NCBI RefSeq assembly: GCF_988243305.1
Contig: NZ_OZ547136.1
Direction: 5' to 3' (one strand)
DNA: 64,000 nt
Shown here: positions 34,089-34,643 of the stretch, one piece after another
Numbering within the stretch: the stretch's first letter is position 1
Layout of the letters: each line of letters starts with the position of its first letter
Position numbers and translations under genes: made by a program
Notes under the pieces: model-generated
Seen by the model: only the letters and a program-made list of their open reading frames with translations
Database searches by the model: none
What the model was told of the DNA's origin: nothing

Positions 34089-34643
34089 GAAGCACGGTTG
34101 TTTTGCGGTAGGTTAAGATCAAAATTGCGCTGATTAATCCTGGTTATCGGGAGAAGCTCGGTGATAAAAAGCGAATTATCTCTCGTCGCAAACAAATTAT
34201 CACATGAATATTATCACTATAATGAATTTATTGTTTAGCCTTTACGAATCAGGATAAAAGATAACTGGGCGCGTTTTTTAATTTTTACAAGTTAAAACTA
34301 TCAGATTTTATTGAATAAATATTGATTGTGTGATTTTGCATTCTGCGGGAAGGGATATCAGTTAATTATAAATTAAATGAATGAGAATTCTGTTTTTCAT
34401 TAAGTATTTCTAACAACTTAATGTAGATATTTTAAATGTCTCCAGGCTATTTCACCAGGTTATCATTTGATGCTAACCTTCTGACACATGCAGTGGAGTT
34501 GTTGTGCAGCAGGAGTATGCTGATATGAAAGTGAATGCTAAGGATAATTTATTCGCTTAATCTATTAATTTGCTGGAAACATTTAAGGAATGAATATCCT
34601 GAATAAACCATCGTAATTTTTAGACAGTGGATGTGGAGGAAAT
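34089..34643. promoter_or_regulatory. AT-rich divergent regulatory region upstream of yjjQ-bglJ (H-NS-silenced, LeuO-activated in E. coli)
   Basis: About 550 bp of strongly AT-rich non-coding DNA between yjjP and yjjQ. Regulatory role taken from established knowledge of the yjjQ-bglJ operon. Confidence 0.5.

Follow-up and report, generated by a model that had tools for sequence, protein, structure and literature searches.

We found that the AT-rich DNA upstream of yjjQ-bglJ in the window (the whole stretch of DNA analysed, 64,000 nucleotides) is very probably a control region shared by two divergent units, yjjP(-yjjB) and yjjQ-bglJ, which H-NS silences and LeuO relieves. Silencing by H-NS and activation by LeuO are established knowledge for this spacer from E. 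coli K-12, and confirming them adds nothing new to that picture. Composition, boundaries, orthology, conservation and the promoter-like site were computed here, and the effects of H-NS and LeuO are taken from the K-12 literature. The additions are incremental: a corrected boundary, a core kept in composition but not in sequence, conserved footprints across genera on both sides of the spacer, and an apparent natural deletion of the silencer by IS1. They may be useful for designing mutants in the search for the natural inducer of yjjQ-bglJ.

The window comes from an E. coli chromosome. In a search with 901 bp spanning the region, the sequence was 100% identical to strain KE55 and matched 5424 of the 5426 complete E. 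coli genomes, and the divergent yjjP/yjjQ-bglJ locus was found in 5423 of them. Gene order in the window is dnaC-dnaT-yjjB-yjjP on the minus strand and yjjQ-bglJ on the plus strand, then fhuF, yjjZ, three tRNA-Leu genes and rsmC; the order of b4362-b4371 in K-12 MG1655 is identical, with the synteny from dnaC through the divergent spacer to fhuF shared. A ThrE-type exporter gene lies upstream of the spacer and two overlapping LuxR/GerE-type regulator genes lie downstream. The spacer aligned to that of MG1655 over 618 and 618 bp with 19 substitutions and 0 indels (96.9% identity); adding 4,568,833 to a window position gives the corresponding K-12 coordinate in NC_000913.3. Judged by synteny and alignment, the locus is the orthologue of K-12 b4364-b4366.

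Together with yjjB, the divergent yjjP encodes a putative succinate exporter. The overlapping LuxR-type regulators named by the earlier, sequence-only reading are indeed present: yjjQ and bglJ overlap by 43 nt, and a GerE/LuxR helix-turn-helix domain was found in both products (Pfam). BglJ is a partner of RcsB (PMC3950696). To the right of bglJ, fhuF (36041-36829) differs from K-12 by 5.5%, unusually high beside the 0.4-2.7% of its neighbours, and the tRNA-Leu spacer region 37207-37766 shows 19% differences, 78 gap columns included. This divergence suggests a different allele or a recombination tract to the right of bglJ.

The sequence-only reading had put the non-coding DNA upstream of yjjQ-bglJ at about 550 bp. 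Its AT-rich, non-coding character stands but the length does not, as the spacer measures 618 bp by current annotation and 34089-34643 is only its right-hand 555 bp. The left edge at 34089 marks where the longest yjjP ORF (277 aa) begins; RefSeq and the present-day K-12 annotation start yjjP at 34025 (256 aa). An ATG was found at the residue aligned to the 34025 start in 62 of 64 Enterobacteriaceae species, with a conserved SD-like CAGGGCGA upstream. In many species the extension to 277 aa meets an in-frame stop within 1-20 codons, and in other Escherichia it carries frameshifting indels. Because the ATG at 34025 is conserved and the extension is broken by stops and frameshifts, we take the true spacer to be 34026-34643. 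The abstract of Stratmann et al. 2008 reportedly gives 555 bp for the intergenic region, a length that would go back to an older annotation. The spacer also controls the divergent yjjP, which the earlier reading had left out. The features are collected in the Table.

Table. Features of the yjjP/yjjQ-bglJ locus (positions in the window).
Feature	Position	Strand	Description and basis
yjjP	33255..34025	-	256 aa, ThrE-family exporter; RefSeq (identical strain and K-12), Pfam ThrE E = 1.5e-69
Complete yjjP/yjjQ intergenic regulatory region	34026..34643		618 bp, 33.3% GC
Block CTTCATG(A/T)TA(C/A)AA, here CTTCATGATACAAA	34079..34092	-	extended -10-like (TGnTAcAAA); alignment upstream of yjjP, 18 species
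Conserved block GGTTAAGATCAAAATTGCGCTGATTA	34111..34136		holds TTGATC on the yjjP strand (34123..34118)
AT-rich core	34186..34409		224 bp, 25.9% GC; putative H-NS nucleation and spreading platform
Genus-conserved ATGAATATTATCA	34203..34215	-	with -10-like GATAAT (34215..34210); consensus scan and Escherichia alignment
Conserved distal element TTAAGTATTTCTAAC-N-TATTTTAAA	34400..34436	+	candidate transcription-factor site
Predicted sigma-70 promoter CTGATA-17-GATAAT of yjjQ-bglJ	34520..34548	+	consensus scan
Shine-Dalgarno GGAGG of yjjQ	34635..34639	+	4 nt before the ATG at 34644; sequence reading
yjjQ	34644..35369	+	241 aa, LuxR/GerE-type regulator; Pfam GerE, RefSeq
bglJ	35327..36004	+	225 aa, LuxR/GerE-type; Pfam GerE, RefSeq

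Base composition sets the spacer apart from the rest of the window. The DNA described as markedly AT-rich before yjjQ-bglJ is the lowest-GC 555-bp stretch of the 64 kb: 34089-34643 has 32.6% GC and the window 51.9%, which places the region about 4 sd under the mean of sliding 555-bp segments (mean 0.5195, sd 0.047). Segments equally low in GC make up 0.25% of the total, and every one overlaps 34089-34643; the minimum of 31.5% was reached by those starting at 34158-34165, with the next distinct minimum at 37.7%. Among crude inter-ORF gaps in the window it is the third longest and the sole one to combine a length above 300 bp with a GC content under 35%; of the two longer gaps, one has 58.6% GC and the other contains three tRNA-Leu genes. 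The spacer has the kind of composition expected of an H-NS target, being an extended AT-rich tract (32.6-33.3% against 51.9% GC) enriched in A/T tracts (19.4 per kb against 10.0 in the window) and in TpA steps (0.089 against 0.042). Repeats within it were short, two-copy matches, typical of AT-rich DNA, and a 14-nt inverted repeat (34432-34445 / 34573-34586) showed no covariation in other Escherichia species.

Elsewhere in the window, the divergent spacers 21985-22195 (211 bp) and 3347-3621 (275 bp) have 31-33% GC and may also be H-NS-type targets. Of the gaps between ORFs of 90 aa or more, the longest, 17243-17982 (740 bp, 58.6% GC), is probably an unrecognised gene, pseudogene or RNA locus and not a spacer.

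Conservation is distributed unevenly along the spacer. In nine diverse E. coli strains the core kept a GC content of 26-31%, and its diversity (pi = 0.069) fell within the range of 0.025-0.084 that the neighbouring genes show at third codon positions. Eighteen of the 19 differences from K-12 lie inside the core, a divergence of 8.0% there and of 0.25% in the flanks. The core could barely be aligned when E. coli was compared with the cryptic Escherichia clades and with E. albertii. Spacer length was nevertheless held at 618-620 bp in the nine E. coli and at 618-627 bp in four other Escherichia lineages, and indels were very few. Judging from these alignments, the central 224 bp evolves at about the rate of silent sites with its composition kept. 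Maintenance of composition and length without conservation of sequence is better explained by a reader of DNA shape or composition, such as H-NS, than by a sequence-specific site, and it speaks against the spacer being purely passive.

H-NS is said, in the abstract of Stratmann 2008, to bind the centre of the spacer. The 10-mer TCGATAAATT, reportedly the high-affinity H-NS nucleation motif of Lang et al. 2007, had 0 matches in the spacer with up to one mismatch and 4 with two, the number expected from AT content alone. Faster diversification of H-NS-bound DNA is a theme of PMC4720273, with which the fast core agrees. Blocks kept across the genus Escherichia were found at 34111-34136, 34203-34215, 34399-34445 and 34519-34556 and in the SD region.

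On the yjjQ side, 34426-34575 (150 bp) was nearly invariant among the nine E. coli (pi = 0.004). This most conserved stretch holds the predicted yjjQ promoter, and the same hexamers with the same spacing are predicted in a genomic SELEX paper (PMC3946193). The predicted promoter, from which transcription would start near 34555, is conserved throughout Escherichia, and the block AAGGATAA..AATTC..GTCTATT is kept also in Salmonella and Citrobacter. Promoter-like sites in the spacer numbered 7 against 3.5 +/- 1.9 expected, an enrichment that is not significant. The GGAG of the yjjQ Shine-Dalgarno sequence was invariant in the 20 species aligned.

The conserved distal element at 34400-34436 is a candidate site for LeuO, for RcsB or a LuxR-type protein, or for another factor. 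It carries TTYTAA hexamers at 34408-34413 and 34430-34435, 22 bp apart. Across genera (loci L003-L082) TTCTAA is fixed in position and orientation about 230 bp upstream of yjjQ: 36 of 49 forward-strand copies fell in the -250..-200 bin, and 11 reverse-strand copies were scattered elsewhere. Of 78 species, 16 have the TTYTAA pair (0.5 in shuffles) and 45 have a looser dyad, TTA[AG]N4-6CTAA, at -177 to -267 from yjjQ (7.1 +/- 2.6 in shuffles). At 34400-34413 the window has an imperfect dyad-like TTAAGTATTTCTAA, in place of which relatives carry TTAG-N5-CTAA, compatible with the T-N11-A box of LTTRs. TTAAGTATTTCTAA was rejected as a canonical RcsAB box (TaAGaatatTCctA) because of about 7 mismatches in ungapped alignment. 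The TTCTAA pair was likewise rejected as a sigma-70 promoter, as each hexamer has just 3 of the 6 consensus bases and the important -11A and -7T are missing.

The most conserved bases of the BglJ-RcsB box are "TTc-AA" (PMC3950696), and the core of the TTCTAA element equals them. We consider it rather unlikely that the TTCTAA-N16-TTYTAA repeat (34408-34435), which extends from Escherichia to Klebsiella, Enterobacter and Raoultella, is the docking site of a dedicated regulator. Its candidate factor could be an RcsB-family or LuxR-type protein, autoregulation by YjjQ or BglJ-RcsB included, and if the docking site were real this factor could supply the physiological signal that opens the silent yjjQ-bglJ. 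It is just as possible that the repeat belongs to the LeuO footprints mapped in 2008. A phrase search of the literature found no YjjQ binding motif.

On the yjjP side, the extended -10-like block at 34079-34092 is a candidate core promoter of yjjP, with transcription predicted to start near 34072; it overlaps the ATG of the obsolete 277-aa start. TTGATC, invariant in 18 of 18 species aligned, marks a candidate operator acting on yjjP. Its assignment as an FNR or CRP site was set aside as speculative, as just one half-site is conserved. The -10-like GATAAT at 34215..34210 is a candidate alternative yjjP promoter.

A wider scan with YjjQ, taking one genome per species, returned 80 loci that included Escherichia, Salmonella, Citrobacter, Klebsiella, Enterobacter, Kluyvera and Raoultella, with the divergent synteny of yjjP and yjjQ-bglJ kept. 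The gap between yjjP and yjjQ was 387-709 bp in 52 species, and its GC content averaged 36.8%, compared with 51.5% for the loci. The 300 bp upstream of yjjQ were AT-rich in all 74 measurable Enterobacteriaceae species (mean 32.6% GC, range 26-41%, against 51.7% for the loci). In 22 of the 74, genes for an FAD-dependent monooxygenase (PF01494) and an AraC-type regulator (PF12833) separate yjjP from yjjQ, as in K. pneumoniae (L070, 1153-3235) and 21 more loci (such as L008-L011, L026, L029 and L081). In these 22 species the AT-rich tract remains beside yjjQ, not beside yjjP.

The claim that this DNA is an H-NS-silenced, LeuO-activated promoter of yjjQ-bglJ is supported by published K-12 data on the orthologous, 96.9%-identical spacer. 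K-12 yjjQ-bglJ is described as repressed by H-NS under standard conditions, and derepressed in hns mutants, in PMC3950696 and PMC5025477, both citing Stratmann 2008, and its only known activator is LeuO (PMC3950696, PMC5025477, PMC4264507). H-NS and StpA repress leuO, which together with BglJ-RcsB forms a double-positive loop (same three sources). In genomic SELEX the K-12 spacer was bound by RpoD holoenzyme and flagged HNS (PMC3946193). The orthologue table of an H-NS ChAP-seq study covering K-12, SE11 and SE15 labels yjjP and bglJ (unit yjjQ-bglJ) as H-NS-bound (PMC4720273 S2 Table), as well as the bglJ-fhuF spacer (PMC4720273 S2/S3 Tables). Lack of H-NS occupancy and constitutive expression are therefore contradicted for K-12, because the published data show both repression and binding. 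In laboratory conditions, activation of the native operon by LeuO gave too little BglJ to activate its targets (PMC5025477), so the LeuO switch may be of limited physiological relevance.

Insertion sequences provide genetic evidence at the same locus. IS insertions in the spacer were repeatedly favoured by selection in the mouse gut. They arose in 57% of the wild-type mice that had been colonised with E. coli, and they raised yjjP expression about 2-fold (PMC4674774, PMC5094792). Among natural isolates, strain 203740 from human stool (NZ_CP025913.1, L091 4001-5016) carries an IS1 in place of nearly the whole spacer, of which the first 45 bp are left, and of the 5' part of yjjQ; bglJ is intact directly downstream. 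This would be a natural removal of the silencer and resembles laboratory bglJ-constitutive alleles. One such allele is the transposon insertion yjjQ/bglJ-Y6::mTn10, which gives constitutive bglJ expression (PMC6698644). The gull isolate E. coli A1_136 (L090 1581-2403) represents a second independent IS1 event at the locus; it was rejected as a spacer insertion, as the IS1 lies within yjjP, some 70 bp into its 5' coding part.

The spacer is unusually long for E. coli, which would be explained if it held an unannotated small RNA or small-protein gene. ORFs of 20-45 aa are present, none exceeding 45 aa, and a 30-aa one (34436-34528) lies inside the conserved block. This ORF has no SD and is broken by frameshifting indels in other Escherichia species, and the small ORFs were rejected as genes for lack of conservation. 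No Rfam match at E<=1 was found on either strand of the spacer and no terminator-like site within it, nor does RefSeq annotate any feature there in KE55, the identical strain, or in the 40 listed genomes, among them K-12-like ones. We regard a hidden gene as extremely improbable, and the non-coding status given by the sequence-only reading was borne out. The tract might instead be a passive spacer, its AT-richness the neutral outcome of GC-to-AT mutation and its H-NS binding incidental, with no selected function. A core as diverse as third codon positions, barely alignable beyond E. coli and free of strong H-NS motifs is what this explanation would predict. Functionless DNA should erode under bacterial deletion bias, however, and here length is held within a few base pairs and indels are few. 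The tract also precedes yjjQ in 74 of 74 species, even where two genes are inserted upstream; its repression by H-NS is documented in K-12 (PMC5025477, PMC3950696); and its splitting or removal has phenotypes, with IS insertions selected in the gut (PMC4674774, PMC5094792). We consider a passive spacer improbable.

A further explanation places the selected trait on the other side, in the control of the succinate exporter genes yjjPB, and makes silencing on the yjjQ side secondary. Gut-evolution work calls the IS insertions yjjP promoter mutations and measures the 2-fold rise in yjjP (PMC5094792), and the insertions are linked to succinate transport (PMC5094792, PMC12332998). Conserved blocks shared across genera, namely the invariant TTGATC and the extended -10-like block, adjoin yjjP. 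The most conserved block in E. coli is on the yjjQ side, however, and the AT-rich tract stays with yjjQ and not with yjjP in the 22 species that carry the monooxygenase/AraC pair. We consider the explanation possible but doubtful.

Under the preferred reading, a shared control region silenced by H-NS and relieved by LeuO, H-NS would nucleate on the central ~220 bp, which are rich in AT, A-tracts and TpA, and spread as a repressive filament or bridge. The complex would cover both flanking promoters and keep yjjQ-bglJ (and yjjP) off in ordinary growth. LeuO, a LysR-type tetramer that is itself H-NS-silenced, would bind within the spacer and restructure or block the H-NS complex, which would give RNA polymerase access to the CTGATA-17-GATAAT promoter some 90 bp before yjjQ. 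The same derepression would come about genetically when an IS element interrupts or deletes the AT-rich tract. The core as nucleation platform and the promoter coordinates are predictions from sequence, and the window strain would be expected to behave like K-12. The locus is a textbook-style case of H-NS silencing and LeuO anti-silencing, and a node of the feedback circuit of LeuO and BglJ-RcsB, whose reach includes bgl, leuO, motility and virulence-associated traits; YjjQ represses flhDC, according to the title of Wiebe et al. 2015.

The closest known system is the K-12 yjjP-yjjQ region itself (b4364/b4365; Stratmann, Madhusudan & Schnetz 2008, J Bacteriol 190:926), which has the same gene order, length and near-identical sequence, and which agrees exactly with the window in the predicted yjjQ promoter, the SD and every conserved block. 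It differs in the core, where nearly all substitutions fall and where K-12 has 29.5% GC against 25.9% here. The silencer of the bgl operon is likewise an AT-rich, H-NS-silenced promoter region, cryptic in the laboratory, and is activated by LeuO and by IS insertion (PMC9678765, PMC2646131, PMC5493358). It has H-NS elements both upstream and downstream, a CRP-dependent promoter and activation by BglJ-RcsB as well, whereas the yjjP/yjjQ spacer is a single spacer serving two divergent units, with no CRP or BglJ-RcsB input documented. The promoters of leuO and cas (CRISPR-Cascade) are also repressed by H-NS(/StpA) with LeuO as antagonist, and they belong to one circuit with yjjQ-bglJ, in which BglJ-RcsB activates leuO and LeuO activates yjjQ-bglJ (PMC5025477, PMC6698644). 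At the leuO and cas promoters the LeuO core site is defined, a palindrome of 19 bp; in the spacer, the imperfect dyad at 34400-34413 would be a candidate for a LeuO site.
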